Below are positions 20,913 through 62,035 of a stretch of 64,000 nt of DNA, piece after piece. This DNA comes from a virus. Its lineage: Duplodnaviria > Caudoviricetes. Each line of letters opens with the position of its first letter. The stretch's first letter is position 1. The notes below the pieces were generated by a model. The model saw only the letters and a list, made by a program, of their open reading frames with translations. It was not told the origin of the DNA and made no database searches. The DNA lies in IMG/VR virus record IMGVR_UViG_3300021254_000021, positions 32,001-96,000 of that record, one strand, 5' to 3'. A program made the position numbers and the translations under genes.

Positions 20913-20948
20913 AAGCCCCAAAGGAAGCTCCTTTGGGGCTTTTCTTTT
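20913..20948 (+). terminator. rho-independent terminator after capsid gene
   Basis: AAGCCCCAAAGGA-AGC-TCCTTTGGGGCTT plus T tract. Confidence 0.85.
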
Positions 20949-21009: not shown

Positions 21010-21093
21010 TAGTTGGGTGTTATATCCCTTTATTATAGAGCTAGTTGGGTGTTATATCCCTTTGTTCTTTATAGTTGGGTGTTAATTCCCTTA
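21010..21093 (+). repeat. three 22-bp direct repeats in the 5' leader of the nuclease gene
   Basis: TAGTTGGGTGTTATATCCCTTT at 21010 and 21042, TAGTTGGGTGTTAATTCCCTTA at 21072. Confidence 0.9.
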
Positions 21094-21114
21094 ATGATAA
21101 AAAGGAGATATATT

Positions 21115-23610
21115 ATGGCTAGGAAAAGGAAGTTTATAGTAAATATTGGAGACCAATTTGGGAGACTAACTGTATTAAGAGAAGAAGTTAATCCTAAAGA
21201 CATAAGTCACCCAAATTATTTATGTCAATGCTCTTGTGGTAATACTACTATAGTAAGAGCAAAACTATTATGTAAAGGTATTACACAATCTTGTGGGTGT
21301 CTTTGGAAAGACACTATGAAGGAGATAAAGGAAAAACAGAAACAAAAGTCTGCTATCCCTATTGGGACTGTTTCAGGTAATTTAACTGTTATAGAAGATT
21401 TAGGGATTTTGCCATGTGGTGTAAAAAAAGAACATTGTTATAAGTGTAAATGTGTTTGTGGTAAAGAAGTAGTAATTAGACAGCAATGTTTAAAGAGAGG
21501 TCAGGCTTCTTGTGGGTGTACTAAATTTGAAAATCCAAGAAAAGTTATATCTGAAAAAGCAAAGAAAAAGAGAGAGTATCCTACATGGCTGTCTAATTTT
21601 TTAGTGTTTGAAGAAGAAATTAATGGTATAAAAAATAAGGATTATTCTTATGAGACTAGACTTCATTTTCGATGTTCTAATTGTGGGCAAATTGTAGAGA
21701 AGCCAATCTCATATATTATGCGATTAAATAAAGAAAGAGAACAGCCAGTCGTATTATGCTTGAATTGTTCTAATCATCGTTCTTCCTTTGAAGAAGAAGT
21801 TTATCAATATATAAAATCCATAGTTAATGAAAAAACCATACAGAGAAATATATGGGGTATTCTAAGAGATGGTCAAGTACAGTATGAACTGGACATGTAC
21901 CTTCCTGATATAGGTGTAGCTATAGAGTGTAATGGGGATTACTTTCATTCTGCTAGTTATAATAAAGGGGGTTTGTATCACCAAAAGAAATACCAATTAG
22001 CAGAAGATAAAGGGATTCATTTAATTCAAATTTTTGAATCTTACTGGAAAAGTAATAAAGAGAAAATAAAAAGCTATTTACATGATTGTTTGGGAAAAAC
22101 TCAAAAAGTGTATGCACGTAGCTGTTTTATAAGAACTATTACTAAGAATGTAGCTAATAACTTTTATAATGAGAACCATATTCAAGGAGCTAGTTCACAG
22201 TGTGATATAAATCTTGGTCTTTATGATAAAGACTCTTTGATTTCCTGTATGAGTTTTACCAAAGTTGGTTTACACAACCCTACTGCAAAAAATGAGACTT
22301 ATTTTGAACTTGTTCGCTTTTCTGTAAAAAATGGTTTTTCTATTATAGGTGGTGCATCTAAGTTACTTACTTTTTTTGAGAAAGAATATACACCTAGTAA
22401 ATTGCTCTCTTATTCAGACAATGACTTCTTTACAGGGAAGGTGTATAGGATTTTAGGCTTTACATTAGATGCTTATGTAAAGCCTCGTTATCATTGGTTT
22501 ATGCGAGATCAGACAGTTCGTACCAGAGAGAGTTGTCAGTTAAAATATCTATCTAAACAATATCCAGATATTTACAATAAAGCCTTACAAGAGAAAGCTC
22601 TTAATAAAGAGGATTATATTATGGATCAACTAAGAGCTGTTAAGGTATACCACTCTGGTAATAAGAGATGGATAAAGGAATACAAAGGAAATAGTTTAAA
22701 GGAAAATGCTCCGTTAAATGAAAATTCCTCATTAGTCACACTCCCCATGAAAGAGGAAGTTAAGAGTTTTATAAATTCCTTAATTACGGATAGTGTAGTA
22801 GAGTATAGAGATTCTCTATTTGATTTATACTTAGAAAAATTTAATCTTGCTTTTATGTTTTCTTCCTCTATATATAATACAAACCTAAAGAGACCTAAAA
22901 ATTTTTATAGAGATAAATTCTATCTCGCTAGTGAGAAAGGGATTCGTTTAATTTCCATATTTGAGATGGACTGGAAGGCTTCTAAAGATAAGATAAAGAA
23001 TCTTATTAAGTACAACATTTTACCTAAAGAGAAAATCCCTGCTAGGAAGTGTGTGGTAAAGAGTGTATCTATACAGGAAGCATGGGAGTTTTATGATACC
23101 TATCATATTCAGAATAAGTCTTGTTTAGCAAAGATAAATTATGGTCTTTATTATAAAGATTCTTTGGTGGCAGTGATGGGTTTTGGCTCATCCTCTTTCC
23201 ATAACAGGCAGTATAATGAAGGGGATTATGAGCTACATCGTTTTGTAACAAAAACTGGTTTAACTGTTGTGGGTGGGGCGTCTAAATTACTTAGTCTGTT
23301 TGAAAGAGAATACCACCCTGCATTCTTGCTGTCTTATTCGTGGAATGATTGGTATGACGGTACAATGTATTCCAAGTTAGGTTTTACTCTGGATAAGAAT
23401 GTTCCACCAGACTATTTCTGGATTCTAAATGATGAGTGTATTAACAAAAGAAAATGCAGATTGAAAAGTCTTTCCAAGCAATACCCAGAACTGTATGAGG
23501 AAGCCATAGAAAAGAATGTGTCTAATAAAGAGGACTTCATCATGGAAAGTTTAGGTGCAATAAAAGTATATCGTTCAGGATCTAAAAGATGGGTTAAGAA
23601 ATATGTGTGA
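21115..23610 (+). CDS. Zn-finger / Vsr-like nuclease / Mom-like GNAT protein (Hef-like homing endonuclease type) with duplicated nuclease-GNAT module
   Basis: Start reassigned to ATG 21115 (AAGGAG). Two GxxxGxLTV..CxCxCG..SCGC repeats, ELDMYLPDIGVAIECNGDYFH, and two ARxC..H..ELxRF..GGASKLL..SYS..GxxYxxLGF..NKEDxIM domains. Confidence 0.75.
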   Translation: MARKRKFIVNIGDQFGRLTVLREEVNPKDISHPNYLCQCSCGNTTIVRAKLLCKGITQSCGCLWKDTMKEIKEKQKQKSAIPIGTVSGNLTVIEDLGILPCGVKKEHCYKCKCVCGKEVVIRQQCLKRGQASCGCTKFENPRKVISEKAKKKREYPTWLSNFLVFEEEINGIKNKDYSYETRLHFRCSNCGQIVEKPISYIMRLNKEREQPVVLCLNCSNHRSSFEEEVYQYIKSIVNEKTIQRNIWGILRDGQVQYELDMYLPDIGVAIECNGDYFHSASYNKGGLYHQKKYQLAEDKGIHLIQIFESYWKSNKEKIKSYLHDCLGKTQKVYARSCFIRTITKNVANNFYNENHIQGASSQCDINLGLYDKDSLISCMSFTKVGLHNPTAKNETYFELVRFSVKNGFSIIGGASKLLTFFEKEYTPSKLLSYSDNDFFTGKVYRILGFTLDAYVKPRYHWFMRDQTVRTRESCQLKYLSKQYPDIYNKALQEKALNKEDYIMDQLRAVKVYHSGNKRWIKEYKGNSLKENAPLNENSSLVTLPMKEEVKSFINSLITDSVVEYRDSLFDLYLEKFNLAFMFSSSIYNTNLKRPKNFYRDKFYLASEKGIRLISIFEMDWKASKDKIKNLIKYNILPKEKIPARKCVVKSVSIQEAWEFYDTYHIQNKSCLAKINYGLYYKDSLVAVMGFGSSSFHNRQYNEGDYELHRFVTKTGLTVVGGASKLLSLFEREYHPAFLLSYSWNDWYDGTMYSKLGFTLDKNVPPDYFWILNDECINKRKCRLKSLSKQYPELYEEAIEKNVSNKEDFIMESLGAIKVYRSGSKRWVKKYV

Positions 23611-24609: not shown

Positions 24610-27600
24610 ATGAGACCTAATGATGGTAGAGAAGCCGCGTATGTTCGTTCCCGCGTTATAGATAAAAGCCTAGTTCCTGCTTCCACGGAATATCTCCCTT
24701 TATTTACCTGTTTAGCACCAAAAGGCACATCTACAGAACCCGTACTTATTCGTCAGGTGGATGATCTTTTAAATGAGTTTGGTGATCCTTCTATAAACCC
24801 TATTTTATACAGGGATTTAATTACCATTAGAGATTTTGTAAAGGGTGGGCGATCCTGTTGGGTGAATCGTGTCCCTGTAAATGCACAGAAGTTCCACTAC
24901 TATTTTTATCTTAACAATACTCTACCTTTGGTCTATATGCTTTATTTTACTTATCCTAAGTGGAATACACTTACAACAGAGGAAAAGCGTATAGCTAATG
25001 CAGGTTATCTCTATGGTGGTTCAAGCGTTATCCGTTTTCAGGATCATTTAGGTAATTACCTCGATGTAGACATCTTTACTGAAATATATGATATTGTTTC
25101 AAAGAAGGATGAGATATTTGAGAAAACGGGGTGGGTGGTAGATGTACCAGAAAATCCTCTTATCCGAATTGCAGAAAAGCATAACTCTTTACAGCAGTTC
25201 ACCACTTCTGTAAACAAGGGTAGGAAATACATTACTATGAGGTGGCAGGGTACATACTCTACACCAGAAAAACATACTTTAACCTCTACTGTTTATGTAC
25301 AACCTGTTGGTTCTGATGGGAAAATTATCAGAGATTCCGAAGGTCATTTAATTAGACCTGATAATCCAAATAACATCTCCCTTTTTAAGCAGACGGTTGT
25401 ACCTGTAAAGGTATTGGAAGATGTTGTAGATGCCTATATTGGTACACCAGAACATACCTCTTATACAATACCAAGTGTGGGATACTCAAATATTTATAAA
25501 CAAACAAATCATCTTTATTCTAGGAAAACGTCTATAACAGTAGAAAAACCAAATCCAGAACCTCACATTTACTATTTAGAACCTGCTCAAGAAGGTTCTA
25601 ATACCGTTATCATAGGTAAAACTCAAGAGGATGGGGATGGATGGATTTATCTTAATACAGTTAATGGTAGTACATCTTCCAGTACACGTGTAGATAAAGT
25701 TACTCTAAAAAATTCTCTTGTTGCTGATGAAAGGTATAAAGATTGTTTAGAGTTTACAAATGAAGTGAATAAGAGAATAAAAGTTAAAGATGATTATAGT
25801 CAAGATACTATAACAGTAAGTCCATTAGATATTCTTATTCATAATAAAGCTATTTATAAAGTATATTATACTCCTAATTATGTTGTAGACCCTAAAGACC
25901 CTTCTTCTAATTACAACAAAGTGGATGACGCTACTTATGTTTGGAAATTTCCGAATTTATCCACAGAAGGATTAACTCTTACTTTTTCTCCTAGTACATA
26001 CCTAGGGTATTCATATCTTATGTACTCTATTAGTGTAGAATGTACAGAGTATTATACTGGTCCCACTACTATAGAAATAGAACCTTTTGATATATTTGAA
26101 GGAGAGAAGATTCCTTATGATACAAATACACATACATACTTTCCAATAAACACGGAATCAAACCCAGACCTCCTTAGTTTAACCTTTACAGCATCTATTG
26201 GATACTACGTTTTACGAAATAATCCAATACCTTTCCCAGTTTTACAGGATAACCATATTAAGATTGGTATGGCTAATTCTAGTGGTACAGGGGATATTTA
26301 TCAGGAGATAAAATTACCCGCAGGTACATATAACCAGTCAGGTGCAAGGTATATCATAGATAAGTTAATCCATGTCTTTTATAAAGCTACTAGATACACT
26401 GAATCTAAACTAAGAAAAAGGAAGGTGTATTCTGAAATACCTACGACAGATGAGGAATGGGAAGATTATCTTGTTCCAGAATCCGAGTTAATAGATGGTA
26501 CGGAATACTATACCAATGAGAAAGACTCTACCTCTATAGAAAGGATAGAGCCTAATTGGCAAACATTTATTTATTCTTCTTCATCTCCTAATATACCTAA
26601 AGCTCCACTATACAGACTCTTTTATACCTCTACATCATCCTCTAATTATTATTATAATGCGGCTTTTGAAATATGTGATAGCAATTATAGTCTTATTTAT
26701 TCTATTGGAGCAAACTTAGTCTATGTGGACGACCGTATTATAAACAACTTGATGTCAAGAACATTATATAGGGGAGAAGAAGCAGAAGATTTCTCTGTTT
26801 ATTTCCCTTATAGCTATTGGTCTGAGATAGAGGATTATCTTAAAGATAATTTCGACATAGAGATGCACTACCCAGATGGGTTCTCTTCAAGTGAGACACA
26901 TCTTACCTCGTTTGACACAACTTTAATACCAGAATTAAGTGCAGAGGATCTTTTACTCTTTAGTATGGATTCGATGCTCTATCAGGACTCAAATATTTTG
27001 ACCATAACCTCTGTGACTAAATTAAAACCCGCTTCGGCAGGACTGCGTATTAAGTATGTTTTACAGGGTTATGACTTTTCCTACACCAACTTCTTAATTG
27101 AGGAAACAATTACTCTGCCAGATCACTTTACCAATCAGCAATTTGCTGATGCAATGAATGAGAATCCATACGTTAATGTTACTGTGGATGATCCAGAAGC
27201 AGACAATATTTACAGGAATGTTATAGCAGGGTATTTTAGTAACTTAGCCTATACAGTTCACTATGACTTGGATGTAGAAATAACATTAGAGGATTACCAG
27301 AAAGCAATTAAGGTTTATTCAGATCCAAAGTATTATGGAAACTTTATTGCTGATTTAACATATCCTTTAGTAAGGTGGTATGAAAATCCAGACCCAGATA
27401 GTGAGCCTTATTATGAAATCTACATCATGCCAGAAAATGAACGTAGGGCGATTCATTGGACAATGAAGGAGATTGCGGCAACACGTAAGGATTTAATCTG
27501 CATATTCTCAACACCTAATTTACCTTTAGATCAAGCCTGTAATTGGGTAGCCGCTAAAGGTGATTATGCAGATTATTGGGAATACGGTACATCTCAAACC

Positions 27601-28299
27601 TTAGAGTATTCTGAACAGGCTTTCTACTGCGAGATGTACTATGGTTGGTTTAGTTATAAAACAGCCTTAGTTTCCGGCCAACCTTATAAGATTAAGGAAG
27701 TGAATGCAACTCTCTTTGTTATTGCCAACATTATTGATGCTTGGAATAACAAAGGTATCTCTTTCCCTGTTGCGGGAGATCAGGGTGGTGTTTTAAATAG
27801 TAACATAGATTACATAAGTATTCTGGATAACCCAGATACGAAACAGAAGAAGGATAAATTAGTCTCTTACAGAATTAACCCTATTTGGGACACAGGTACA
27901 CGTGGTATTCAGATTTATGGTAATGAGACTTTGAATCCTCTCTATACAGATTTATCTTCGGCGCATATTGCAAGAATGCTTGTGCAGATACGTAACCAGA
28001 TAGACACGTACACAGAGTCGATTAAATTCTCTTTAAATAACAAGTACACATGGGGTAGTTGGATTAATAATGTATCTACTAAGATTCTTGATCCTTTAAA
28101 GGCACAAGGTGGCTTAGTTTGGTACAGTGTTAAGATGGGTACAGACACAACTACGCCCGACCAGATAGCACAAAGAAGAATAAACGGTATTGTTTCTCTG
28201 CAATTCCGACCAGATTTAGAGATAATAGACTTAGAATATACCGTATATTCCTCTGCTTTAGATATGGTTGAGGTTTCTAGTAATATAGTCCTCTTGTGA
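24610..28299 (+). CDS. tail sheath protein paralog 1 (large insertion domains)
   Basis: FGDP motif near N-terminus; FPVAGDQGG, RINPIWDTGTRGIQIYGNETL, HIARML and IKFSLN sheath C-terminal motifs. Confidence 0.88.
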   Translation: MRPNDGREAAYVRSRVIDKSLVPASTEYLPLFTCLAPKGTSTEPVLIRQVDDLLNEFGDPSINPILYRDLITIRDFVKGGRSCWVNRVPVNAQKFHYYFYLNNTLPLVYMLYFTYPKWNTLTTEEKRIANAGYLYGGSSVIRFQDHLGNYLDVDIFTEIYDIVSKKDEIFEKTGWVVDVPENPLIRIAEKHNSLQQFTTSVNKGRKYITMRWQGTYSTPEKHTLTSTVYVQPVGSDGKIIRDSEGHLIRPDNPNNISLFKQTVVPVKVLEDVVDAYIGTPEHTSYTIPSVGYSNIYKQTNHLYSRKTSITVEKPNPEPHIYYLEPAQEGSNTVIIGKTQEDGDGWIYLNTVNGSTSSSTRVDKVTLKNSLVADERYKDCLEFTNEVNKRIKVKDDYSQDTITVSPLDILIHNKAIYKVYYTPNYVVDPKDPSSNYNKVDDATYVWKFPNLSTEGLTLTFSPSTYLGYSYLMYSISVECTEYYTGPTTIEIEPFDIFEGEKIPYDTNTHTYFPINTESNPDLLSLTFTASIGYYVLRNNPIPFPVLQDNHIKIGMANSSGTGDIYQEIKLPAGTYNQSGARYIIDKLIHVFYKATRYTESKLRKRKVYSEIPTTDEEWEDYLVPESELIDGTEYYTNEKDSTSIERIEPNWQTFIYSSSSPNIPKAPLYRLFYTSTSSSNYYYNAAFEICDSNYSLIYSIGANLVYVDDRIINNLMSRTLYRGEEAEDFSVYFPYSYWSEIEDYLKDNFDIEMHYPDGFSSSETHLTSFDTTLIPELSAEDLLLFSMDSMLYQDSNILTITSVTKLKPASAGLRIKYVLQGYDFSYTNFLIEETITLPDHFTNQQFADAMNENPYVNVTVDDPEADNIYRNVIAGYFSNLAYTVHYDLDVEITLEDYQKAIKVYSDPKYYGNFIADLTYPLVRWYENPDPDSEPYYEIYIMPENERRAIHWTMKEIAATRKDLICIFSTPNLPLDQACNWVAAKGDYADYWEYGTSQTLEYSEQAFYCEMYYGWFSYKTALVSGQPYKIKEVNATLFVIANIIDAWNNKGISFPVAGDQGGVLNSNIDYISILDNPDTKQKKDKLVSYRINPIWDTGTRGIQIYGNETLNPLYTDLSSAHIARMLVQIRNQIDTYTESIKFSLNNKYTWGSWINNVSTKILDPLKAQGGLVWYSVKMGTDTTTPDQIAQRRINGIVSLQFRPDLEIIDLEYTVYSSALDMVEVSSNIVLL

Positions 28300-28414
28300 A
28301 CAATGTCAGTTAATGCATGTGGCAGAGGTAGCTCAACCTTAACTTACTCCAACTTATCTATCTTTAGTAAGAGAATGTTTCCTTACTAAAGGTAGAAGCA
28401 TAAGGAGATGGATT

Positions 28415-28683: not shown

Positions 28684-31284
28684 ATGAATCCAAATCAAGG
28701 TCGTGAAGCGGCGTATGTAAAATCCAGAGTTAAAGACCTTAGTCTTATTACCAATACACCAGACTATGTAGGGTGCTTTGCTTGTATTACACCTAAAGCT
28801 CATTCTTCTTTAGATGAGCCAGAAAATTATACCATTGTTGACGGTGTTAAAGTCTACCTTCCTCAGTTAGTTAGAGATGTCGATACTCTGACAGAATTAT
28901 TTGGTGATCCTAGAATTGATCCTGCTACCTATAAAGACCTTTATGCTATCAGAACAATCGTGCAGAATGGTTTTGCCTGTCATATTGCAAAAGTTAAATC
29001 AGGTGAACCCTATACTGCTATTGTAAACTCCTCTGGTCTTTTTGAATCAGCAGGTTGTATTCCAAATACTCAGTTAGATGATGAATCAGAGTTAATTCAG
29101 CTTAAAGCAGACTTACAAGACATTAACTTATTTAATGTAGAGTCCTCTATTGTAGGTACAAACAAGCTGTCTGTCGCCCTTATTCCTTTAAAACCATTCT
29201 CAATCAACCAAGTTGTTTTAGAGATTCACTTTACCTCTAAAGCTACATCATCTTCTGATGAAGTAGAGGTTTCCTCTGCTAGAATAATGCTTACACCCGA
29301 TACCAAGAATGCGGATTTGATTAAAACAATCAATGGTTATCTTGGTGGAGACATTAGCTTCCAGTTACCAGACATTCTTAATGATGCCACGTTTGCTACG
29401 GTTACAGATGCCAGTGAGGTGATTGAACCTGATTCCTCTACTGGTGAAAAGTATTACTGCATTGCGAACGTCCTTCTCTATATCTGCGGACTCTATGTTT
29501 TAAGAAAAGAGGGTGATCACTTTGACAGCACCGATCTTCTTATGGACAATATGGAACTGTGTACAAAAGAAGTGTCTGGTGTTACCAAGAGAGGTTTGGA
29601 AGCTCTTAAAGTGGAATGGACAAATGGCTATGTTGGACATAACAGAACAACATTTATATGCAAAGTGAATAAAGGTGAGGATGCTACCCTTTCCGTTTCA
29701 CAGGCAGATTATGTCCGCTCTTTAAATCTTTATAGTGATCCTAAGTACAATGGTTGCTTTATCTCTGATTTAAGCTCTGATGTCACAGTCACAATAGAGA
29801 AAGATAAACCCACTTATAAAGCAACCAACTATATAGCTAATAGCTATAATGAAGAAGCTCTGCCCGAAGATTACCCAAAGACAACAGGTTATCTCTTTGT
29901 TAAGAGAGGTGACGAGGATGATCCTACCACTACCTATGACAGCATGAAGTATATTGCTGATAATACCGCTTACTTAGCAACACGTGGTCTGGATAGACAG
30001 AAATTCACACAGACCTCAGAAACAGAGGGTGATGTCACCGTTTATACCTATACACCAGATCCTTCAGGAACATTCGTAAGAAAGTATGAGTCTAATCCCA
30101 CCTTAACAGAGAGATTTGCTCCCGATACGGAAAACTCCAACTTTGTTACTCTGGAGGCAGGGGTAAACGACAAGTATAATAAACAGCTCTATAACCCTAA
30201 TGGTTATACCAGAGTTAATTTAACTTCTGAACCATCCCCGGCTACAGACCAAATCTTTTTTGTTAAAAATGAAGATGGTACAGCTTATGTGGAGAGAATT
30301 GTAGCTAATCCAAGTGCAGAACCACCAGTAGAAGGTAATGATAAAGAAGAAGTGACAGAGATGGTGGAAATGCCGTCCGATGATAGACGTGGTTTACACT
30401 ATATCATTAAACATGTAGCCGCTCTTAGAAAAGACTTAACCTGTGTATTTACCACCCCATACAAACCTTGTGACATAGAACAGTCTATAGTACAAAAGAC
30501 ACTTATCTATGAGGATTTGTTTGATTTAAATAGAGCCTGTAATTGGGTTGCCGTTAAAGGTGATTTTACAGACTTATTTGAATATGGTAATTCTCAGGCT
30601 GTCGATTACTCCGAACAGGCTTTTTACTGTGAAATGTACTGGTCATGGCTTAAATGGCGTGTAGCTAAATTAGTTAATGGTTTGGCCACTGGTTCTTCCG
30701 TTGTAATCATGCCACCCACACCTTTCGTTATTTTGAATGCTTTAGCCTCTTATCGTACAAAAGGTTCGTTCTACCCTGTTGCAGGTGATCAAGGTGGTGT
30801 CCTTCCTGATTCCTGTACCATTCTACAGAATCCTTCTACCAAAGGACAGAGAGACAAACTAATCTCTTATAGAATTAACCCCATTTATGATACTGGTTTA
30901 CGTGGTATTCAGATTTACGGTAATGATACCCTTAATCCACAATACACCGATCTTTCAGCCGCTCATATAGCCCGTACCCTCGTTCAGATTCGATCCAGAG
31001 TTGATGCTTACTCAGAAACCATTAAGTTCTCACTCAACGATAAGTACACTTGGGGTACATGGATCAATTACGTCTCTACCAAGATTCTTGATCCTATCCG
31101 ATCCTTGGGTGGATTACAGTGGTATCAGGTCGATATGGGTTATAACACCACTACACGAGATGAGATAGCACAACGTAAGATTCGTGGCATGATTAGCCTA
31201 CAGTTTACGCAGGCTCTTGAAATAATCGACTTAGAATTTGTCGTTTATTCTTCTGCTCTGGATATGGAAGCTACTACAACGTAA
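28684..31284 (+). CDS. tail sheath protein paralog 2
   Basis: Same N-terminus (GREAAYVKSRV) and C-terminal sheath motifs as paralog 1. Confidence 0.9.
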   Translation: MNPNQGREAAYVKSRVKDLSLITNTPDYVGCFACITPKAHSSLDEPENYTIVDGVKVYLPQLVRDVDTLTELFGDPRIDPATYKDLYAIRTIVQNGFACHIAKVKSGEPYTAIVNSSGLFESAGCIPNTQLDDESELIQLKADLQDINLFNVESSIVGTNKLSVALIPLKPFSINQVVLEIHFTSKATSSSDEVEVSSARIMLTPDTKNADLIKTINGYLGGDISFQLPDILNDATFATVTDASEVIEPDSSTGEKYYCIANVLLYICGLYVLRKEGDHFDSTDLLMDNMELCTKEVSGVTKRGLEALKVEWTNGYVGHNRTTFICKVNKGEDATLSVSQADYVRSLNLYSDPKYNGCFISDLSSDVTVTIEKDKPTYKATNYIANSYNEEALPEDYPKTTGYLFVKRGDEDDPTTTYDSMKYIADNTAYLATRGLDRQKFTQTSETEGDVTVYTYTPDPSGTFVRKYESNPTLTERFAPDTENSNFVTLEAGVNDKYNKQLYNPNGYTRVNLTSEPSPATDQIFFVKNEDGTAYVERIVANPSAEPPVEGNDKEEVTEMVEMPSDDRRGLHYIIKHVAALRKDLTCVFTTPYKPCDIEQSIVQKTLIYEDLFDLNRACNWVAVKGDFTDLFEYGNSQAVDYSEQAFYCEMYWSWLKWRVAKLVNGLATGSSVVIMPPTPFVILNALASYRTKGSFYPVAGDQGGVLPDSCTILQNPSTKGQRDKLISYRINPIYDTGLRGIQIYGNDTLNPQYTDLSAAHIARTLVQIRSRVDAYSETIKFSLNDKYTWGTWINYVSTKILDPIRSLGGLQWYQVDMGYNTTTRDEIAQRKIRGMISLQFTQALEIIDLEFVVYSSALDMEATTT

Positions 31285-31306: not shown

Positions 31307-31346
31307 AAAACCCGATTAGGATTGTACTTAATCGGGTTTTCTTTTT
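31307..31346 (+). terminator. rho-independent terminator
   Basis: AAAACCCGATTAGG-ATTGTA-CTTAATCGGGTTTT. Confidence 0.8.
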
Positions 31347-31348
31347 GT

Positions 31349-31377
31349 TTGACTTTCATCTCAGAATGTAGTATAGT
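31349..31377 (+). promoter_or_regulatory. sigma70-type promoter
   Basis: TTGACT-N17-TATAGT; followed by a 9-bp-stem hairpin ATTAAGTGA-AATCCC-TCACTTAAT (31384-31407). Confidence 0.7.
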
Positions 31378-31425: not shown

Positions 31426-33273
31426 ATGGGTAAAGATTATCGACATTTTACAAAATATCCAACGTGGTTTATAGAGGAATTAGTTAATAAAGAAGATCGT
31501 GAGGATGCTAAGAAAGGTATTTTACCTCGTTCTAAAAAGGTTACTCTTTTCTGTAAAGATCATGGCTCTTATCTCCAAACACCCTCGAACCACATAGACT
31601 TTAAAACTATGTCTTTAAAGGGAGGTTGTCCGAAATGTGGGAGACGCCTACAAATAGAAAAGAGTAAGATAACTAAAAGAAAAGTTAGAAAGTCTTATCC
31701 AGAGTGGTTTATAAATGAGTTAGCACATGATGAGGATAGAATTAAAGTGAAAAATAAGGAGCTTTCTACGGGAGACAGAGTAGATTTTCTATGTCCTGTA
31801 CATGGTATTTACAGTATGGCAGTCTTTAATCATATTCGTTTAAAGACAGGATTAAGACTACGTGGATGTCCAGAGTGTGCAAAAGTAGATAGGAGAGAAC
31901 ACTGTATTAAAACAAAGATGGAAAATAGACCAGACTATCCTGTTTGGTTTATAGAAGAATTATTTAAAGAGGAAGATAAAGAGCGTGCTAGGAATAAGTG
32001 TTTAAGGTATAATGAAAAGGTTTCTTTTTATTGTAAGGATCATGGTGTCTATACACAGATAGTAGCAGATCATATAGAGTATAAGACAGGGGAAAAGAAA
32101 CAGGGATGCCCAAAGTGCGGAATAATAAAAAGAAATTTAAATAAGAAAGAGAGAAATAAACAGAAAAGACCAAACTATCCAGACTGGTTTATTGAGGATA
32201 TAGCTAGTGAGGAAGATAAAGATAGGGCGAGAAACAAAGAACTAACGTGGTCTGATAAGGTAAATTTTATTTGTCCTATACATGGTGTGTATAAACAAAG
32301 AATAGATGCACACATGAACACTTCTACTTTAACACCAAAACAAGGTTGCCCTTCTTGTGGAATCCTTCTTTCTAAAAGTGAGATAGAAATATCTGATTTT
32401 ATTAAATCACTAGGGGTAGAGATAGAAAAAAGAAATAGATCTTTGATTAAAGAGAAAGCGTCTACGCGATTTTTAGAATTGGATATTTTTATTCCTAATA
32501 AAAATATAGCTATTGAGTATAATGGAAGTTACTGGCATGGAGAGTTGCATAAAAAAGATAAGAAAAGTAATTTGAATAAATTCTTACTCTGTGCAGAACA
32601 AGGTATTCGCTTAATCTCTATTTATGATCGTGATTGGAAAGAAAACAAAGATAAGATTTCTAACTTTCTAAAAGATTTGTTAGTTCCTAAAATTAGAATT
32701 TTCGGTAGATGTACAGAAGTTAGAACCCTTTCCTTACAAGAAGCAAAGAAGTTTTATGATGAAAATCATTTAAAAGGGAGTGGTAATCACAATAAAATTT
32801 CTTATGGTCTGTTTTATAATGGTAGTTTGGTATCAGCAATGTCCTTTTCTAAACCGAACTTTGGGAATCAAAGAAAGGTAGAGTGGGATTTGACACGTTA
32901 TTGTGTTAAGTTTGGTTATTCTGTTATAGGAGGTGCTGAAAAACTCTTTAAAACATTTATAAAAGAATTTAATCCTTCTAATGTAATAACTTATTCTGAC
33001 AATGATTACTTTACAGGAGAAGTCTATTCCAGACTAGGTTTTCTTTTGGATAAGATAACTAGTATTCCTTATTACTGGGCTAAGAGTGATCACATTTTTC
33101 TAAATAGAGAGGTGTGTCAGGTACATAAACTAAAAGAAAAGTATCCTGATATTTTCCAGAAATCTATAGATGAGAATGCATCTAACAAAGAGGATTATAT
33201 CATGCACACTTTAGGTTATTATAAAGTGTATCGTTGTGGTAATAAAAGGTGGATTTGGAAATCCACTATCTAA
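31426..33273 (+). CDS. 4x Zn-finger repeat / Vsr-like nuclease / Mom-like GNAT protein
   Basis: Four ~77-aa YPxWFIxEL..CxxHG..H..GCPxC repeats; ELDIFIPNKNIAIEYNGSYWH; ENHL, DLTRY, GGAEKL, TYSDND, GEVYSRLGF. Confidence 0.75.
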   Translation: MGKDYRHFTKYPTWFIEELVNKEDREDAKKGILPRSKKVTLFCKDHGSYLQTPSNHIDFKTMSLKGGCPKCGRRLQIEKSKITKRKVRKSYPEWFINELAHDEDRIKVKNKELSTGDRVDFLCPVHGIYSMAVFNHIRLKTGLRLRGCPECAKVDRREHCIKTKMENRPDYPVWFIEELFKEEDKERARNKCLRYNEKVSFYCKDHGVYTQIVADHIEYKTGEKKQGCPKCGIIKRNLNKKERNKQKRPNYPDWFIEDIASEEDKDRARNKELTWSDKVNFICPIHGVYKQRIDAHMNTSTLTPKQGCPSCGILLSKSEIEISDFIKSLGVEIEKRNRSLIKEKASTRFLELDIFIPNKNIAIEYNGSYWHGELHKKDKKSNLNKFLLCAEQGIRLISIYDRDWKENKDKISNFLKDLLVPKIRIFGRCTEVRTLSLQEAKKFYDENHLKGSGNHNKISYGLFYNGSLVSAMSFSKPNFGNQRKVEWDLTRYCVKFGYSVIGGAEKLFKTFIKEFNPSNVITYSDNDYFTGEVYSRLGFLLDKITSIPYYWAKSDHIFLNREVCQVHKLKEKYPDIFQKSIDENASNKEDYIMHTLGYYKVYRCGNKRWIWKSTI

Positions 33274-33313
33274 CACATAGTGACTTTGTTCCTTAAAAAT
33301 AAAGGAGAGTATC

Positions 33314-33757
33314 ATGCGTAAATTAAAAAGAAATGAAACAAGAACAGTGACAGAGGGTATCTCCCCTTCTGCTATTGGTCGTAGTAAAGAGATCGTGGAT
33401 TGGGCTATTGACTACATTAAAGACACCCTTCCTGATTATGAGGGAGAAACTGTTTATGGTAGTGATTTAGGCGCTACCATTACAGAAGGCCCTAATGCAA
33501 ATGGGGTTTATGAAGAAGATGCTTGGGGTTTCATATCCAAGCATATCAATGATGCCCGTGATGAGTACGAGTATGAGAAGGATAACTTTGGTGAGGTTCT
33601 GCATAACCCGTTTGAAGACCCAGATGCTTTTGTTGTCTGTATGTTAATCAACACAGTGGAAGGTGTTTTGTCTCAAGTTCCATTGGTGGAGGAGAACTGG
33701 AATGACGAGTTCGAGCTGACTAAAGAGAATATAGATGCTATCTTAAAAGCTCTTTAA
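33314..33757 (+). CDS. small acidic protein, probable capsid cargo
   Basis: AAGGAG RBS; MRKLKRNE leader then a strongly Asp/Glu-rich body. Confidence 0.65.
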   Translation: MRKLKRNETRTVTEGISPSAIGRSKEIVDWAIDYIKDTLPDYEGETVYGSDLGATITEGPNANGVYEEDAWGFISKHINDARDEYEYEKDNFGEVLHNPFEDPDAFVVCMLINTVEGVLSQVPLVEENWNDEFELTKENIDAILKAL

Positions 33758-33785
33758 TTACAACTATATCTATCTTAGTAAAGAG

Positions 33786-33815
33786 AAAGCCCAACTTAAA
33801 TAGTTGGGCTTTTTT
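33786..33815 (+). terminator. rho-independent terminator
   Basis: AAAGCCCAACT-TAAAT-AGTTGGGCTTTTTT. Confidence 0.8.
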
Positions 33816-33831
33816 ATATAGGAGAAATACT

Positions 33832-34488
33832 ATGGTTAAGTTAAAGAGAGTCTGTGAGAGATATGATCATATCCGTTCTTTAGAGAACCTATTAAAGTTT
33901 TACTCTAGGAATCCAGATAATTGGGATAAAGAGTGGTCTGTCAACCCTTATTATCTTGTAGATTTAAAGAATTATGGTGCAGGTCATTGTGTTTGTGGAC
34001 ATCCTATTCGTTACCAATACCAATTTTTAAATACGGTAACAGGTAGAACATTCCCTGTTGGATCAGAATGTGTCCATCTTTTACATCTCGCCAAATTTGA
34101 CGAGACAGTGGATAAACTGGAAAAGATTGCTCAAATGGCTAATGCTGAAATAGACACTTCTTTAAAGGCTGAGGACTTTATTAAAGCGTATAAGAAAATA
34201 TACGATATGGCTGGTGTCTCTGCTTTAACAAGCTATGGACAGTATAAACCAGATCCCACAGATCTATTTATCTATCGTAACTCTATTGGTAAACGTAAAT
34301 ATAAAGAGTATGCAGAGAAGATGAAAGCGTTTATGATAGAGTTGCATGATGAAGCTAAGAAGTTTGTCAACAGTATGGAAAGAAAATCAAAACCTGTGAC
34401 ACCAGATCAGGTACAGCAGATTGTCGATGATAGCGCCGCAGAGATGTTACGTTTTGCACAGGCCAAACAAAATAAACTTCCATTCTAA
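33832..34488 (+). CDS. Zn-binding hypothetical protein, probable capsid cargo
   Basis: MVKLKRVCE leader; HCVCGHPI...VGSECV metal-binding pattern. Confidence 0.6.
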   Translation: MVKLKRVCERYDHIRSLENLLKFYSRNPDNWDKEWSVNPYYLVDLKNYGAGHCVCGHPIRYQYQFLNTVTGRTFPVGSECVHLLHLAKFDETVDKLEKIAQMANAEIDTSLKAEDFIKAYKKIYDMAGVSALTSYGQYKPDPTDLFIYRNSIGKRKYKEYAEKMKAFMIELHDEAKKFVNSMERKSKPVTPDQVQQIVDDSAAEMLRFAQAKQNKLPF

Positions 34489-34538
34489 ATAAACCTCTAT
34501 CTATCTTCATATACCCCTTTTGTGTATGGAGATAGATT

Positions 34539-34964
34539 ATGTATAAAGACAAACCATTAATTCTAAACATCTTACTAGGTATATGGCAACTACCACAGAT
34601 ATTGGTTGGTCTTGTTATGTTAGCTATATTCCGTAACAAGACATCATACACAAATCCGCATAACCATATTACGGTATGGAATATTAACTGTCATCGTGCC
34701 TTTGGTACAGCCTGTTTCTCAACAGGCCCATTCATAATAACTTGTGATGATTATGTGGATGATGAAATACTTAGACATGAGACTGGTCACAGTCTTCAAA
34801 GCGTAATACTGGGACTATTCTATCACATTGTTGTTTCCATTCCGAGTGTTTGTTTATTTTGGTATAAGAGGAGAAAGAAAAAAGATCAGAAATGGTATTA
34901 TAGTCATTATCCAGAAAATTGGGCGAATAAAGCGGGTGGTGTAGAGACCTCTATGTACGAGTGA
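34539..34964 (+). CDS. small membrane protein with HExxH zinc-peptidase-like motif
   Basis: IWQLPQILVG hydrophobic N-terminus, RHETGHSLQS, YPENWAN. Confidence 0.6.
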   Translation: MYKDKPLILNILLGIWQLPQILVGLVMLAIFRNKTSYTNPHNHITVWNINCHRAFGTACFSTGPFIITCDDYVDDEILRHETGHSLQSVILGLFYHIVVSIPSVCLFWYKRRKKKDQKWYYSHYPENWANKAGGVETSMYE

Positions 34965-35055
34965 TAATCTAAATACACAGGGTTAAGTCGGCCAACCGAA
35001 AAAAAGCAGTACATAAGGTTATTATAAACAGAGATTATTCCTTTTTATCGTATAT

Positions 35056-35091
35056 AAGGGAAAGAGATTCCTCTCTTTCCCTTTTTCTTTT
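35056..35091 (+). terminator. terminator-like hairpin directly upstream of the third nuclease gene
   Basis: AAGGGAAAGAGA-loop-TCTCTTTCCCTT plus T tract. Confidence 0.6.
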
Positions 35092-35099
35092 ATCGTATT

Positions 35100-36923
35100 A
35101 TGGCTAAGAAAAAAAGAATATACCCACAATGGTTTATAGAAGAATTAGCAGACCCTACGGTTAAGCAACAGGCCGTAGATGGGTCACTCTCCACTGTATC
35201 TAAAGTAGAATTTAAATGTGCTTGTGGGAATACTTATATACAAAAAATAACAAACCATATTAACCTCTCTACTGGGGAGAGAAAGTTTGGACATTGTAAA
35301 GAGTGTACAAAGAGAATATCAGCTCAAAAATACAGAGACTCTTTAGGTACATCGAAACCTTATCCTAATTGGTTTATAGATGAGTTAGTTAGAGATGAGG
35401 ATAAGATTAAAGCTAGAGATGGAAAACTGAAGTCTGATGATAACGTCCCTTTTATTTGCCCTATATGTAAAGAGATATATAATCAAAGAGTGGCTAGTCA
35501 TATAACACTTTCTACAGGTATTAAAAAGAAGGGGTGTCCTAAGTGTGGTATAAGAAAACAGATAGAGTCCAGTAGAAAAACTAAAGAGATTATAAAGCCT
35601 TATCCACAATGGTTCATAGATGATCTTTACTCTAATGAGGATAAAGCATTAGCTACAACCACCAATTTTTATGGCAAAGAGGAAAAACAATTCTATTGTA
35701 AGAAACATGACTTGGTGTACATACAAAAAGTGAGGAGTCATATAGATTTAAAAACTCACTTACCAAAAGCGGGATGTCCACAGTGTAAAGTAGAGAAGTT
35801 TAGAAAATCTTTAAATACAGACACGCCTTTGCCTGATTGGTTCATAAAAGACTTAGTTAATAAAGAAGATAAGCAAAGAGCTAAAGAAGGTAAAATTAAG
35901 TCTAATGAGAAATTAGATTTCCAGTGTAAACAAAATCACATATATAAGCAGGAAGTACATGCTCATATAAATTTAGGTACACAAGAGCAACTATGTGGAT
36001 GTCCCGTTTGTGCTAAACAGAGGTCTAACACAGAGATTAGCATAGAGAACTTTATTAAAGAACTAGGATTTAATACCGAACATAAGCGGTTTAATTCATC
36101 TATATTACCCATCTTTGAGTTAGACATATTTATTCCAGATAAGTACATAGGCATAGAGTACAATGGATCTTTCTGGCATAAAACACTTCCACAGGATTTT
36201 TGTTTTAAGCCTAGGCTGTATCATAACCAGAAATACTATGCTTGTAAGGAATTAGGAATACAACTAATCTCTATATTCGATGTCGATTGGGAATATAGAA
36301 AGGATAAAATCAAGCAGTATCTTAAAGACCTCTTAACACCATCCTCTAATAGAATTTATGCAAGGAAATGTGAAGTAAAACAGATAAGTAAAGAGGAAGC
36401 TAATGATATGTATGAAGAGGATCACTTGTTAGGTAAAACTTCTGTACAGTCTGTCTCTTATGGTTTATTTTTTAACAATGATTTACTTTCTTGCATGAGC
36501 TTTCAAAAAGGAAGGTATAAAGAGGGTAAAGAATCCGTTTGGTGTCTCACTCGTTTTGTTACTAAGTCTTGTTACTCTATTGTAGGTGGGGCTTCTAAAC
36601 TTTTAACAGAGTTTGAAAAGGAATTTAAACCATCTATTTTAATCTCTTATTCTGATAATGATTATTTCACTGGTAGAGTATATTCTAAGTTAGGTTTTGA
36701 TTGTTTTGGTGATACAGGATCTCCACGCTACTACTGGTATTTAAATGGATCAGAGCTTAAAAGAGAGCAATGTCAGTTAAAATTCCTTTCTAAACAATAT
36801 CCAGAACTGTATCAAGAGTCTTTAAATAGGACTGGAAATAAAGAGGATTATATTATGCTTAGTCTTGGTGCTAATAAGGTGTATAGGTCTGGACATACCA
36901 AATGGATAAAAAGATATAGCTAA
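35100..36923 (+). CDS. 4x Zn-finger repeat / Vsr-like nuclease / Mom-like GNAT protein
   Basis: Four PxWFI..C..HI..GCPxC-type repeats; ELDIFIPDKYIGIEYNGSFWH; EDHL, LTRF, GGASKLL, SYSDND, GRVYSKLGF. Confidence 0.75.
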   Translation: MAKKKRIYPQWFIEELADPTVKQQAVDGSLSTVSKVEFKCACGNTYIQKITNHINLSTGERKFGHCKECTKRISAQKYRDSLGTSKPYPNWFIDELVRDEDKIKARDGKLKSDDNVPFICPICKEIYNQRVASHITLSTGIKKKGCPKCGIRKQIESSRKTKEIIKPYPQWFIDDLYSNEDKALATTTNFYGKEEKQFYCKKHDLVYIQKVRSHIDLKTHLPKAGCPQCKVEKFRKSLNTDTPLPDWFIKDLVNKEDKQRAKEGKIKSNEKLDFQCKQNHIYKQEVHAHINLGTQEQLCGCPVCAKQRSNTEISIENFIKELGFNTEHKRFNSSILPIFELDIFIPDKYIGIEYNGSFWHKTLPQDFCFKPRLYHNQKYYACKELGIQLISIFDVDWEYRKDKIKQYLKDLLTPSSNRIYARKCEVKQISKEEANDMYEEDHLLGKTSVQSVSYGLFFNNDLLSCMSFQKGRYKEGKESVWCLTRFVTKSCYSIVGGASKLLTEFEKEFKPSILISYSDNDYFTGRVYSKLGFDCFGDTGSPRYYWYLNGSELKREQCQLKFLSKQYPELYQESLNRTGNKEDYIMLSLGANKVYRSGHTKWIKRYS

Positions 36924-36989: not shown

Positions 36990-37553
36990 ATGGCTTATGA
37001 TACATATTCAGGTGCATCACATTTTGCGAACGACTCCAATTATGAAGTCCAACGTGGTAATCATTACGAGATTGTTATAGACTTGGATGCCTTACAGCCT
37101 AAGTTTGATTCAACTTATGCAGAAGCTATTCGTCTTTGTTGTACTTCTGCTCCTGTTCCTGATATTTCTATTCAAGCACAGCCTTTACGTCATGGTAATG
37201 AAACAGTAAACGTTGCAGGTTCTCCTTCATGGGGAAACATGTCCATTAGTGTTTATGATGTTATTGGACGTGATATGGCTACTTTATTACAGGAATGGTT
37301 TTGGAGAGTCTTTAATCCTGCTACACATACAATGGGTTTAGTTACATCATATAAAACCTCTGCAACACTTTATCTGTATTCACCAGATGCTTCTACCTTT
37401 AGAAAATGGATTTGTTATGGTGTTTTCCCAACAAACATAAACTTTGGTAGTTATTCTGCTGACAGTCAGGGCGCTCCAGTTTCCATTACTATGAATCTTG
37501 CAGTGGATAGAACTGAACTAGTTTCCGCAGGTGGTACAGCTATTGGTTTTTAA
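36990..37553 (+). CDS. tail tube protein (T4 gp19-like)
   Basis: QRGNHYEI, SAPVP, GNETVNVAG, ISVYD, LQEWF..V, GVFPTNI gp19-type motifs; 187 aa. Confidence 0.88.
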   Translation: MAYDTYSGASHFANDSNYEVQRGNHYEIVIDLDALQPKFDSTYAEAIRLCCTSAPVPDISIQAQPLRHGNETVNVAGSPSWGNMSISVYDVIGRDMATLLQEWFWRVFNPATHTMGLVTSYKTSATLYLYSPDASTFRKWICYGVFPTNINFGSYSADSQGAPVSITMNLAVDRTELVSAGGTAIGF

Positions 37554-60457: not shown

Positions 60458-60646
60458 ATGGAAAATGATCTGGCTATGTATATGGACTTTAGGAAAGTGA
60501 TAGAGGAGTTTTGTTATCCCTTGTTGAAGGAGTGGTCTGGGGAAGGGTATGTGGAGATCAAGGATGGTGATGATGTAGTAGGGTTTATGATGGTATTGGA
60601 CAATTATTATGTGAATGCTCTTTATGGTGAACTACCACGCACATGA
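60458..60646 (+). pseudogene. GNAT acetyltransferase-like gene interrupted by the IS
   Basis: VVGFMMV..YVNALY; removing the IS gives NALYVKRE* (GNAT motif-A-like). Confidence 0.5.
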
Positions 60647-60800
60647 AGATTGCGTGGCTTCTCGTGCAAGTTCATCACATACCAAAACTCGTTCGGCAGT
60701 TTGATGCACAGTAAGCGAGCTATCCCCGTCGTCCCGACGGTTCAATATCCTTAGACCTTTTCTGTCTATATTCCTTGAGGCATTCAAATCTCTGTCATGC
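60611..60800 (-). ncRNA. predicted omega/reRNA of TnpB (boundaries approximate)
   Basis: Established TnpB architecture: the scaffold overlaps the 3' end of tnpB and the right end, and the guide comes from flanking DNA (CATAAAGAGCATTCAC). Confidence 0.5.
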
Positions 60801-62035
60801 ACTTCACCACAACACGGGCACACCCATTCCCTGACTTTCAATGATTTGATGCCTCTTATGCTTTTATTCTGGAAACCACAGCCTGAACATATCTGTGTCG
60901 ATGGATAAAAACGACCTATTTTAACAATAGTTCTACCATACCATTCAGCCTTATATTCAAGCATATTCACGAACCTGCTAAACGACGCATCTGCGACTGA
61001 TTTAGCAATGCAGTGATTTGCTTCCATTCCCTTGACGGATAAATCTTCTAAGCAAATCACTTGGTTTTCGCGAATAAGCCTAGTTGACAGTTTTTGCAAG
61101 AAATCTTTTCTCTGATTCTTTATCTTTTGGTGACATCGTGCCACTTTGATTCTCATCTTTTCGTGATTCTTAGAATCTTTAACAGTCTTGGCAAAAGAAC
61201 GCTGTCTCTTTGCTAGTTTTTCTTCTGCTTTTCTGAAATGCTTTGGAGCTTCAACACGTTTACCATCGGAGCAGACAATGAAGTCATGCAGACCTAAATC
61301 AATACCAACATGTTTATCTGTCTCTGGCAATTTTTCTGGTTCTTTAACCTCGCATAGCACTGATGCATAATATTCTCCACTGCGTTCATGCGAAACAACG
61401 ACGGATTTAATTTCACCTTCATGCTGTCTATGCTCAATGATTTTTACATAACCAATTTTAGGCAGTTTAAGACGATTGCCATCAAAACGAATCGATCCAT
61501 TTTGGTTATTCGTTTTATAACTTAGTCTTGAATGCTTTTTAGATTTGAACTGAGGAAATCCAAAGTGTTCAGGATTTTTGAAGAAATTTCGATATGCCTG
61601 TTCTAAATTTAGTTGTGCATTGGCAAGAGCAAGACTGTCAGCATCTTTTAAAAATGGGTAGTCGTTTTTGAATTTTGCAGGTGTAACATACAGGGTTTCT
61701 TTATATTGTTTATATTGTTTATAATGCTTTGTTTTGGCATCAAGCATGAGATTATAGACCAATCTAGCACAACCAATATTCTGGTTGATTTTATCAGCTT
61801 GTGCTTTAGTTGGATATAACCTGTATTTGAAAGCCTTTAACATCGTGGTATTTAGCCTTGAATACGTGCCTATTTTACCTCTAAAAGAGTGTGTGGCGGA
61901 CGTTAGGCTTTACGTCTTTTCGGTAGCTACCCTAGCCACACAAGTATATAGATAGAGAAATCTTTTTGATATTTCAATCTGTTTTTTGTTATTTAACCCA
62001 CGGGCAAAATGCCTCGTGGGATTTCTTTATTTAGG
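60627..62035 (-). mobile_element. IS200/IS605-family tnpB-only (IS1341-type) element
   Basis: Subterminal hairpins at both ends (CCCACG..CGTGGG; CCACGCA..TGCGTGG), right end terminating TCAC, TTTAA immediately 5' of the left end, no tnpA. Confidence 0.88.
60632..61843 (-). CDS. tnpB: RNA-guided endonuclease TnpB
   Basis: AFKYRLYPT HTH; RuvC GIDLG, LEDL, DRDLNA; Zn ribbon CSGCG..CPCCG. Confidence 0.95.
   Translation of the reverse strand: MLKAFKYRLYPTKAQADKINQNIGCARLVYNLMLDAKTKHYKQYKQYKETLYVTPAKFKNDYPFLKDADSLALANAQLNLEQAYRNFFKNPEHFGFPQFKSKKHSRLSYKTNNQNGSIRFDGNRLKLPKIGYVKIIEHRQHEGEIKSVVVSHERSGEYYASVLCEVKEPEKLPETDKHVGIDLGLHDFIVCSDGKRVEAPKHFRKAEEKLAKRQRSFAKTVKDSKNHEKMRIKVARCHQKIKNQRKDFLQKLSTRLIRENQVICLEDLSVKGMEANHCIAKSVADASFSRFVNMLEYKAEWYGRTIVKIGRFYPSTQICSGCGFQNKSIRGIKSLKVREWVCPCCGEVHDRDLNASRNIDRKGLRILNRRDDGDSSLTVHQTAERVLVCDELAREATQSSCAW

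Follow-up and report, generated by a model that had tools for sequence, protein, structure and literature searches.

In this study, we investigated the three long open reading frames (ORFs) that interrupt the virion module of a large T4-like myovirus, a rumen phage of 252 kb. They lie in a stretch of 64,000 nucleotides (the window), which corresponds to bases 32001-96000 of a 252,372-bp virus record (IMGVR_UViG_3300021254_000021) with an estimated completeness of 94%. We observed that these ORFs, namely gene 1 (31426-33273), gene 2 (35100-36923) and gene 3 (21013/21115-23610), together with a fourth gene just upstream of the window, are best explained, with a probability of about 0.8, as free-standing Hef-like homing endonucleases of the Vsr-related EDxHD type, placed between conserved virion genes and aimed by zinc-finger arrays. 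This explanation is carried by the domain identities, the intact catalytic residues and the genomic behaviour of the genes. The protein plan consists of a number of treble-clef zinc fingers of the CapR/DUF4379/DUF723 type, a Vsr-like nuclease and a Mom-like GNAT domain. All three ORFs of the window fall into PHROG 'homing endonuclease' families (E 1e-76 to 1e-124): phrog_559 matches gene 1 at E 9.5e-97 and gene 2 at E 5.1e-88, and phrog_3339, itself named 'homing endonuclease', matches gene 1 at E 5.3e-76 and gene 3, in two stretches, at E 1.8e-124. Genes 1 and 2 are translated without a stop over the ORF limits given above and share 44% identity.

An initial annotation of this DNA, prepared from its letters alone, had described four tandem repeats in each of genes 1 and 2, and the start motifs, the direct repeats and the alignment all agree with it. 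The start motif [YL]PxWF was found at amino acids (aa) 11, 91, 171 and 251 of the gene 1 protein (615 aa) and at aa 8, 88, 168 and 244 of the gene 2 protein (607 aa). The period of about 77 aa given there has to be corrected, as it measures 80 aa (240 nucleotides, nt) in five of the six steps and 76 aa in one; at the DNA level, a direct-repeat finder disclosed repeat families with 240-nt spacing and 60-81% identity. The eight variable heptads, from LQTPSNH to KQEVHAH, had been read correctly. The scaffold described as fixed is so in part: P3, W5, C34, C59 and C62 are invariant in the nine aligned repeats (the eight of genes 1 and 2 and one from ORF 21115, i.e., gene 3), with exceptions at other positions, since in gene 1 the second repeat has M for Q and the first has P for V, and in gene 2 the second zinc ligand is shifted in two repeats. 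Position 37 is H, C or G, the last with H at 38. Compared with the first repeat, the other seven of genes 1 and 2 are 33-49% identical, and that of gene 3 is 21% identical. For gene 3, one such repeat, of degenerate form, and two modules of another Cys-rich class were recovered as announced; the latter match the N-terminal part of phrog_374, 'HNH endonuclease'.

Membership of the repeats in the CapR/DUF723/DUF4379 zinc-finger group is supported by Pfam, which describes DUF4379 as a 'probable treble clef zinc finger'. The DUF4379 model (cut-off 24.5 bits) scores 31.9 bits with the whole gene 1 protein and 48.7 bits with that of gene 2, and DUF723 (cut-off 20.9 bits) scores 29.2 bits with gene 1; because whole proteins pass these curated cut-offs, the family assignment is not a matter of chance. 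Scored singly, one of the eight repeats passes its cut-off (27.4 bits), five give weaker matches and two give none. No Pfam zinc-finger model exceeded its curated cut-off in gene 3, and the Pfam model of CapR matched none of the window proteins. The predicted structure of a single repeat (predicted local distance difference test, pLDDT, 89.4) has a treble-clef layout, running from two short helices through a beta-hairpin with the C34/H37 knuckle and a short helix at 44-47 to C59-P-x-C62 at the start of a helix, and thus the model places two ligand pairs (C-x2-[CH] ... C-x2-C) within such a fold. In the AlphaFold2 (AF2) model of full gene 1, with a mean pLDDT of 91.2, the last helix is about 19 residues long and continues through a basic linker to the next unit. 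The array carries a net charge of +19, located on the fingers and C-terminal helices, and the N-terminal helix pair of each unit is acidic. The nearest structures are solved DUF4379 proteins of kinetoplastid mitoribosomes (VIA Z 5.9, root-mean-square deviation (rmsd) 2.9, 61 of 68 residues aligned), for which there is also a profile match (E 0.0076).

The nuclease domain follows the repeats. The common catalytic unit supposed in the initial annotation also includes a Mom-like GNAT domain that it did not mention. The assignment of the nuclease to the Vsr-like EDxHD family, made by sequence comparison, rests on profiles, as the structure searches with whole models were dominated by GNAT matches. 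With a profile of 91 relatives, I-Bth0305I is matched in its catalytic domain (3r3p_A; E 2e-6, 29.8 bits), and Taylor et al. 2011 place Hef-type enzymes in the Vsr-like 'EDxHD' family in the available part of their text (PMC3239194). E351, D353, E364, H371 and K385 are invariant in all 91 aligned relatives, E319 is kept in 90 of them, and position 366 is N or D in 88; their mapping onto E170/D196/N208/H213/D222 of I-Bth0305I was made by motif and is partly inferred. Every one of the family-invariant residues is retained in genes 1 and 2, and likewise in the first of the two modules of gene 3. The Pfam model MTES_1575 matches the gene 1 nuclease at E 3e-4, below its cut-off, the match of the Pfam Vsr model likewise lies below its curated cut-off, and a search of the PDB with the gene 1 sequence alone gave nothing below E 0.2.

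Residues 426-615 of gene 1 are predicted to form a GNAT fold. The top Foldseek match of the gene 1 model in the PDB was phage Mu Mom (8bv8, E 5.7e-6), which VIA superposes with Z 12.4 and rmsd 2.7 over 132 aligned residues, other GNATs reaching up to Z 14.1, and phrog_1384, 'Mom-like', matches gene 1 at E 4e-4. The Pfam Mom model PF25680 (cut-off 27.1) does not match the isolated gene 1 domain; among relatives it scores 28.6 in P0066 and 26.8 in P0072. According to the available text of PMC13219725, R111, S124, D149 and R151 are essential in Mom. By hhalign, at a low probability (10.8%, E 0.0029), these correspond to R491, position 505, D525 and position 527 of gene 1. The counterparts are kept widely in 52 distant relatives (R111 in 52, S124 in 34, D149 in 47 and R151 in 50). 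Among 39 close relatives, window proteins included, the low-confidence alignment places Arg at the R151 counterpart in none, with Asp in 29 and Cys in 6. All three window proteins have Asp there and keep the counterparts of R111 and D149; at the S124 counterpart, gene 1 has Glu and the other two have Ser. Because the R151 counterpart is Asp in this subfamily, it is doubtful, judging from these alignments, that its GNAT domain performs ordinary 'momylation'.

The remaining two genes are variations on the same plan. Gene 3 resembles an intact homing endonuclease to which a decayed copy has been fused in frame: its second module is 39% identical to the C-terminal half of gene 1, the counterparts of invariant E351, E364 and H371 are replaced in it, and the GNAT 'SD' motif reads SW. 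The ATG at 21115 sits 34 codons inside a TTG-started frame (21013-23610). The fourth gene encodes two zinc-finger repeats, a helical part of about 270 aa, one further zinc finger, the nuclease and the GNAT domain. Its helical part is composed of K/E-rich short repeats of the 'NP[ED]xxK' type, in which a Pfam scan detected no NUMOD or other family, and which may resemble NUMOD-type helices.

With reference to their distribution, tblastn matched relatives in 681 phage records, all with less than 60% identity, the best identities being 25-31%; near-identical DNA was not present in the phage collection. Annotated cases of a 'putative Hef-like homing endonuclease' were matched in Tenacibaculum and Klebsiella phages (E 1e-46 to 1e-47). 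In IMG/VR, close relatives of gene 1 were found with an alignment query, none having been confirmed with a single-protein query. Repeats were counted with a hidden Markov model built from the nine repeats of the window in 123 proteins (the three of the window and 120 homologues), and 0, 1, 2, 3, 4, 5, 6 and 7 repeats were recorded in 1, 4, 12, 33, 51, 16, 4 and 2 proteins, respectively. The repeat units of distant relatives measure about 60-65 aa, the 80-aa form with the YPxWFIxEL helix pair being typical of the rumen-phage subfamily. The gene 1 orthologues, 11 proteins with 43-68% identity, carry repeat classes A-E in fixed order, and 41 of 47 repeats have their nearest neighbour within their own class, so that each class appears, from the alignments, to be old and specialised. 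Classes A-D are found in gene 1 and three others, A-E in three proteins and B-E in four, and therefore the arrays change by loss or gain at their ends.

The genomic behaviour is that of mobile genes. In the window, L009 and L002-L004, a gene of the gene 1 type adjoins a sheath 3' end, and in the window, L006 and L005, one of the gene 2 type adjoins a tube 5' end. In L002 and L005 the sheath and tube genes are adjacent, with flanks that are 97.6% identical over 5.8 and 6.0 kb, and the same spot holds a four-repeat allele of the gene 1 type in L002 versus a five-repeat allele of the gene 2 type in L005, in opposite orientation to the virion genes. Two array types thus replace each other between 97.6%-identical flanks, as mobile genes do. 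At the sheath/tube locus, the array (49-62% identity) and the catalytic half (57-67%) are conserved to a similar degree, and in L014 and L015 the catalytic half keeps 59-66% and the array just 28-36%. L014 has seven repeats and lies beside an adaptor-like gene, and in L015 (L015:4117-8731) a diverged four-repeat member of the family splits nrdD into ORFs of 595 and 333 aa, which match positions 4-407 and 404-710 of the PHROG 487 profile. Homing endonucleases are known inside ribonucleotide reductase genes. These observations, on a small number of related cases, fit arrays that follow the genomic target. The idea that interchangeable modules sit on a common catalytic unit is borne out in so far as array length and make-up vary with a similar catalytic half, but not as a swap of arrays, since genes 1 and 2 represent two paralogous lineages whose arrays and catalytic halves vary together. 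As a whole, a modular DNA-aiming array on a shared cutting unit seems plausible.

The DNA around the endonuclease genes is a hot spot for the exchange of cassettes. Contigs of related strains from four runs carry genes 1 and 2 at about 97% identity, and variation is limited to small cassettes between or beside them. Between the sheath genes, 171 nt (28242-28412) are replaced by 1251 nt in X2 and X7. ORF 33832-34488 (33816-34527) is deleted in X7 and replaced by 665 nt in X8, and inside ORF 34539-34964 a 62-nt segment (34796-34857) is replaced by 1328 nt in X2. On one 32.8-kb IMG/VR contig of a related phage (L001/L006/L009/L014), at least three Hef-like genes, with 5, 5 and 7 repeats, were counted, and the interval from sheath to tube holds series of ORFs that encode about 400 aa.

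The initial annotation had further proposed that the variable core of each repeat holds the specificity residues, in the manner of a zinc-finger nuclease (ZFN). Column entropies over 238 distinct repeats indicated a fixed scaffold with many variable positions. At positions 41 and 43 of YxQxVxxH, repeats of one orthologous class differ from each other as much as repeats of different classes do, and the same holds for 31, 33, 35, 39, 61, 64 and 65; all nine positions look unconstrained in the alignments. In the gene 1 group, identity within classes against that between classes was 0.73 and 0.04 at column 26, 0.57 and 0.05 at column 45, 0.82 and 0.18 at column 46, 0.59 and 0.07 at column 50, and 0.67 and 0.18 at column 57. 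The gene 2 group (12 proteins, 54 repeats) was classed without these five columns, and its leading class-specific columns were 37, 53, 45, 24, 51 and 49. Of the five columns of the gene 1 group, 45 alone was class-specific in both groups, and 57 recurred weakly. A clean specificity code does not emerge from the variable core, and a compact ZFN-like code failed to replicate between the two orthologue groups. When group 1 was classed by reciprocal best hits without columns 43-57, as a control, it collapsed into one class. In the model, columns 43-57 are predicted to lie in the short helix and the loop after the second beta-strand. It is quite unlikely that classes A-E would each read their own DNA subsite via these columns, above all 45, with an altered Mom-like domain marking the own target and so providing self-immunity; if this were true, the orthologues without the first or last class and the two same-site alleles would allow a code to be derived.

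Under the homing explanation, the basic finger-plus-helix units would, in a mixed infection, bind a long asymmetric DNA site in a related phage whose allele is gene-free; this site would lie close to the sheath gene's 3' end or to the tube gene's 5' end. The nuclease would cut near the bound site, and recombinational repair would copy the endonuclease gene together with flanking markers. Loss or gain of end repeats, along with their divergence, would change the array make-up and accompany a change of genomic target. Several results weigh against this explanation. The sole solved look-alikes of the repeat are ribosome-associated rather than DNA-bound, and Foldseek with the single-repeat model gave no match at E <= 0.001. 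The segment 43-57 holds six of the ten top columns in group 1 (P 0.007) and four of ten in group 2 (P 0.16), coarse clustering for specificity positions gave no standout, and the class-specific residues define no compact reading surface. The link between locus and array comes from six related loci and the window, which are not phylogenetically independent. Moreover, a gene-free allele was not found, as the contigs of four runs from four studies (X2, X5, X7 and X8) all carry both genes, and because of this no target site can be read from them; gene-free alleles may nonetheless exist elsewhere. The 3' ends of five aligned sheath genes, with 67% mean column identity, are uninformative on the target.

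The presence of the Mom-like domain raises an explanation by cutting and modification, in which this domain modifies the phage's own adenines for protection and the nuclease attacks host DNA or unmodified superinfecting phages. This has been predicted for the fusions of Mom with a restriction endonuclease (REase) in jumbo phages, according to the accessible portion of PMC7824862, and it agrees with a C-terminal domain closest to Mu Mom and with the essential residues kept in the 52 distant relatives. We nevertheless consider it unlikely for the present genes, as the missing Arg at the R151 position throughout the close relatives and the Glu of gene 1 at the S124 position speak against an active Mom (within the limits of the hhalign match on which the equivalences of both sides depend), and an array of 4-7 putative DNA-binding modules, inserted beside the same conserved genes, would better suit a rare-cutting homing enzyme.

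The repeats might also bind RNA or protein, or merely space the domains, leaving the choice of target to the nuclease/GNAT part. In I-TevI, by comparison, the zinc finger serves largely as a distance ruler. For such a role one may further point to the mitoribosomal proteins that are the nearest solved relatives of the repeat, to the many surface positions that vary freely among orthologues, and to I-Bth0305I, whose specificity resides mostly around the cleavage site and not in the distal binding region, as the available sections of PMC3239194 describe. Against it, CapR, a single module of the related type and the one case with demonstrated sequence-specific DNA binding, binds a defined 30-bp region and loses this on changing four Cys (PMC8096241, as far as its available text goes), orthologues of about 50% identity keep the same repeat classes in the same order, and the arrays diverge most where the genomic locus differs, which together make a non-reading array very unlikely. 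CapR is also a precedent, in the same available text (PMC8096241), for domestication of such modules, and with the dead nuclease in the second module of gene 3 it might suggest that these genes are domesticated CapR-like DNA-binding regulators that have lost cutting; but this is hardly credible with the invariant nuclease residues intact in genes 1 and 2 and in the leading module of gene 3, and with positions and allele replacement that are those of mobile genes. Homing endonucleases aimed by their arrays accordingly remain our preferred explanation.

Protein family annotation identifies the region surrounding the repeats as the virion module of a large myovirus, which also includes tape-measure-like genes (Table 1). 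The three ORFs interrupt it 3' of the head protein gene, 3' of the second sheath gene and 5' of the tube gene, and with the fourth the genome carries four Hef-like genes. The two tandem sheath-like genes (24610-28299 and 28684-31284) share a conserved C-terminal part, and the relative L001/L009 has a single sheath-like gene versus the two of the window. The three small ORFs between genes 1 and 2 (33314-34964) gave no match in a PHROG search. A strong terminator-like hairpin stands directly 5' of each of the three endonuclease genes; such sites are not in excess (11 versus 8.2 +/- 2.9 in shuffles), and the hairpins are to be taken as positions only. Additionally, the int-alpA RNA motif (RF02996, gathering score 35.8) was detected at 61878-61942 on the minus strand of the window (40.6 bits), directly upstream of a transposase-like gene (60632-61843), and on the plus strand of L015 (L015:5920-5988, 40.4 bits), directly upstream of the homing endonuclease gene.

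Table 1. Positions of the Hef-like genes, their domains and the neighbouring features, numbered along the window unless another source is given.
Feature	Position	Strand	Evidence or remark
Gene 1, Hef-like homing endonuclease, 615 aa (P0001)	31426-33273	+	directly 3' of sheath-like gene 28684-31284
Gene 1 array, four zinc-finger repeats	31453-32385	+	start motif, 240-nt direct repeats, Pfam
Gene 1 repeat units	31453-31692, 31693-31932, 31933-32172, 32173-32385	+	
Gene 1 Vsr-like (EDxHD-type) nuclease domain	32371-32700	+	profile, invariant residues
Gene 1 Mom-like GNAT-fold C-terminal domain (predicted)	32701-33270	+	Foldseek, VIA, phrog_1384
Gene 2, Hef-like homing endonuclease, 607 aa (P0002)	35100-36923	+	directly 5' of tube gene 36990-37553
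Gene 2 array, four zinc-finger repeats	35118-36029	+	start motif, DUF4379, repeat alignment
Gene 2 repeat units	35118-35357, 35358-35597, 35598-35825, 35826-36029	+	
Gene 2 Vsr-like nuclease and Mom-like GNAT	36027-36920	+	full-length alignment with gene 1; GGASKLL motif kept
Gene 3, Hef-like homing endonuclease	21115-23610	+	3' of major head protein gene
Gene 3 Cys-rich modules of other class, two	about 21154-21303 and 21373-21522	+	
Gene 3 single zinc-finger repeat	21574-21795	+	followed by nuclease and GNAT
Gene 3 second, decayed nuclease and GNAT module	22720-23607	+	
Fourth Hef-like gene, 731 aa	L034:807-3002 = C1:29306-31501		own genome, just upstream of window
Head protease gene	start 18210		virion module
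Major head protein gene	start 19446		virion module
First sheath-like gene	24610-28299		1229 aa
Second sheath-like gene	28684-31284		866 aa
Tail tube gene	36990-37553		virion module
Three small ORFs between genes 1 and 2	33314-34964	+	strain-variable cassettes, family not recognised
Terminator-like hairpin	20913-20941		directly upstream of gene 3 (consensus scan)
Terminator-like hairpin	31307-31340	+	between second sheath gene and gene 1 (consensus scan)
Terminator-like hairpin	35056-35083		directly upstream of gene 2 (consensus scan)
Promoter-like site TTGACT-17-TATAGT	31349-31377		after hairpin 31307-31340

Homing endonucleases shape the exchange between phage genomes and are used as genome-editing scaffolds. 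The family found here is large, as its 681 phage records indicate, and its biochemistry is barely studied. Four paralogues with different arrays in one phage, orthologues differing by one end repeat, the same-site allele replacement and the relative that splits nrdD provide a natural test set; should DNA be read additively by the modules, a new programmable DNA-binding scaffold could come out of it. The genes matter mainly as a tidy natural series for biochemistry, as the design itself has already been described.

Hef of phage U5, reportedly described by Sandegren and colleagues in 2005, is a free-standing homing endonuclease of T4-related phages. Engineered ZFNs combine C2H2 fingers with FokI, and TALE nucleases likewise join a repeat array to a nuclease. 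The window proteins share this array-nuclease plan and differ in their fold (treble clef, with an 80-aa unit); a fixed DNA word per module and a small set of code residues were not found in their arrays. With the Hef-like enzymes, the window proteins share the PHROG families and the annotated relatives, and it is through these relatives that the likeness was judged; the 80-aa repeat with its helix pair is typical of the rumen-phage subfamily. The Hef-like genes of phage LIMEstone1 (F-LimIII/VII/VIII/X) likewise stand free between conserved phage genes, and one of them adjoins the tail tube gene, as gene 2 does (available part of PMC3296691).

I-Bth0305I (3r3p), whose nuclease matches by profile and whose active-site counterparts are conserved in the window family, is unlike the window genes in being intron-encoded and in having NUMOD/helix-turn-helix-like DNA-binding motifs, with neither zinc fingers nor a GNAT domain in the available account of it (PMC3239194). 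Phage Mu Mom (8bv8; PMC13219725, available text) shares the GNAT fold and departs at the R151 counterpart, Asp in the subfamily, and at the S124 counterpart, Glu in gene 1. The jumbo-phage Mom-REase fusions, which Iyer et al. 2021 read as modification-plus-restriction in the available portion of their text (PMC7824862), show the same fusion to an REase-fold nuclease.

The combination of a modular zinc-finger array with an EDxHD/Vsr nuclease is already published (PMC10448857, PMC12350094), and our genes are further members. From the available parts of these reports, Netter et al. 2021 described CapR as a single module from a phage homing endonuclease that binds a defined promoter fragment and needs its four Cys (PMC8096241); Barth et al. 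2023 recorded that 200 of 229 T5orf172 homing endonucleases contain zinc-finger domains of the CapR/DUF723/DUF4379 group in repeated form, and argued that modularity speeds target change (PMC10448857); and a 2025 paper in Nucleic Acids Research on phage group II introns noted an EDxHD/Vsr nuclease preceded by '3-5 ~60-aa domains' of this type, with thousands of UniProt matches, terming the CapR/DUF4379/DUF723-like domains likely NUMOD-like DNA-binding domains (PMC12350094). Recombination between repeats was proposed as a route to new targets (PMC8096241; PMC10448857; PMC12350094). The published arrays, as far as their descriptions are available, are built from modules of about 60 aa, each with two Cys/His pairs separated by 24-26 residues, and lie, as here, N-terminal to the nuclease. 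The cases of Barth et al. (PMC10448857) have GIY-YIG-like T5orf172 nucleases, whereas those of the window are Vsr-like, and the 2025 cases (PMC12350094) are encoded in group II introns and are described, in the available text, with no reference to a GNAT domain, whereas the window genes are free-standing and carry a Mom-like domain. To these systems our data add, in support of a DNA-aiming array, a repeat number ranging from 0 to 7, a fixed order of repeat classes, the replacement of one allele by another, and a catalytic half that stays similar at other loci where the array has diverged.

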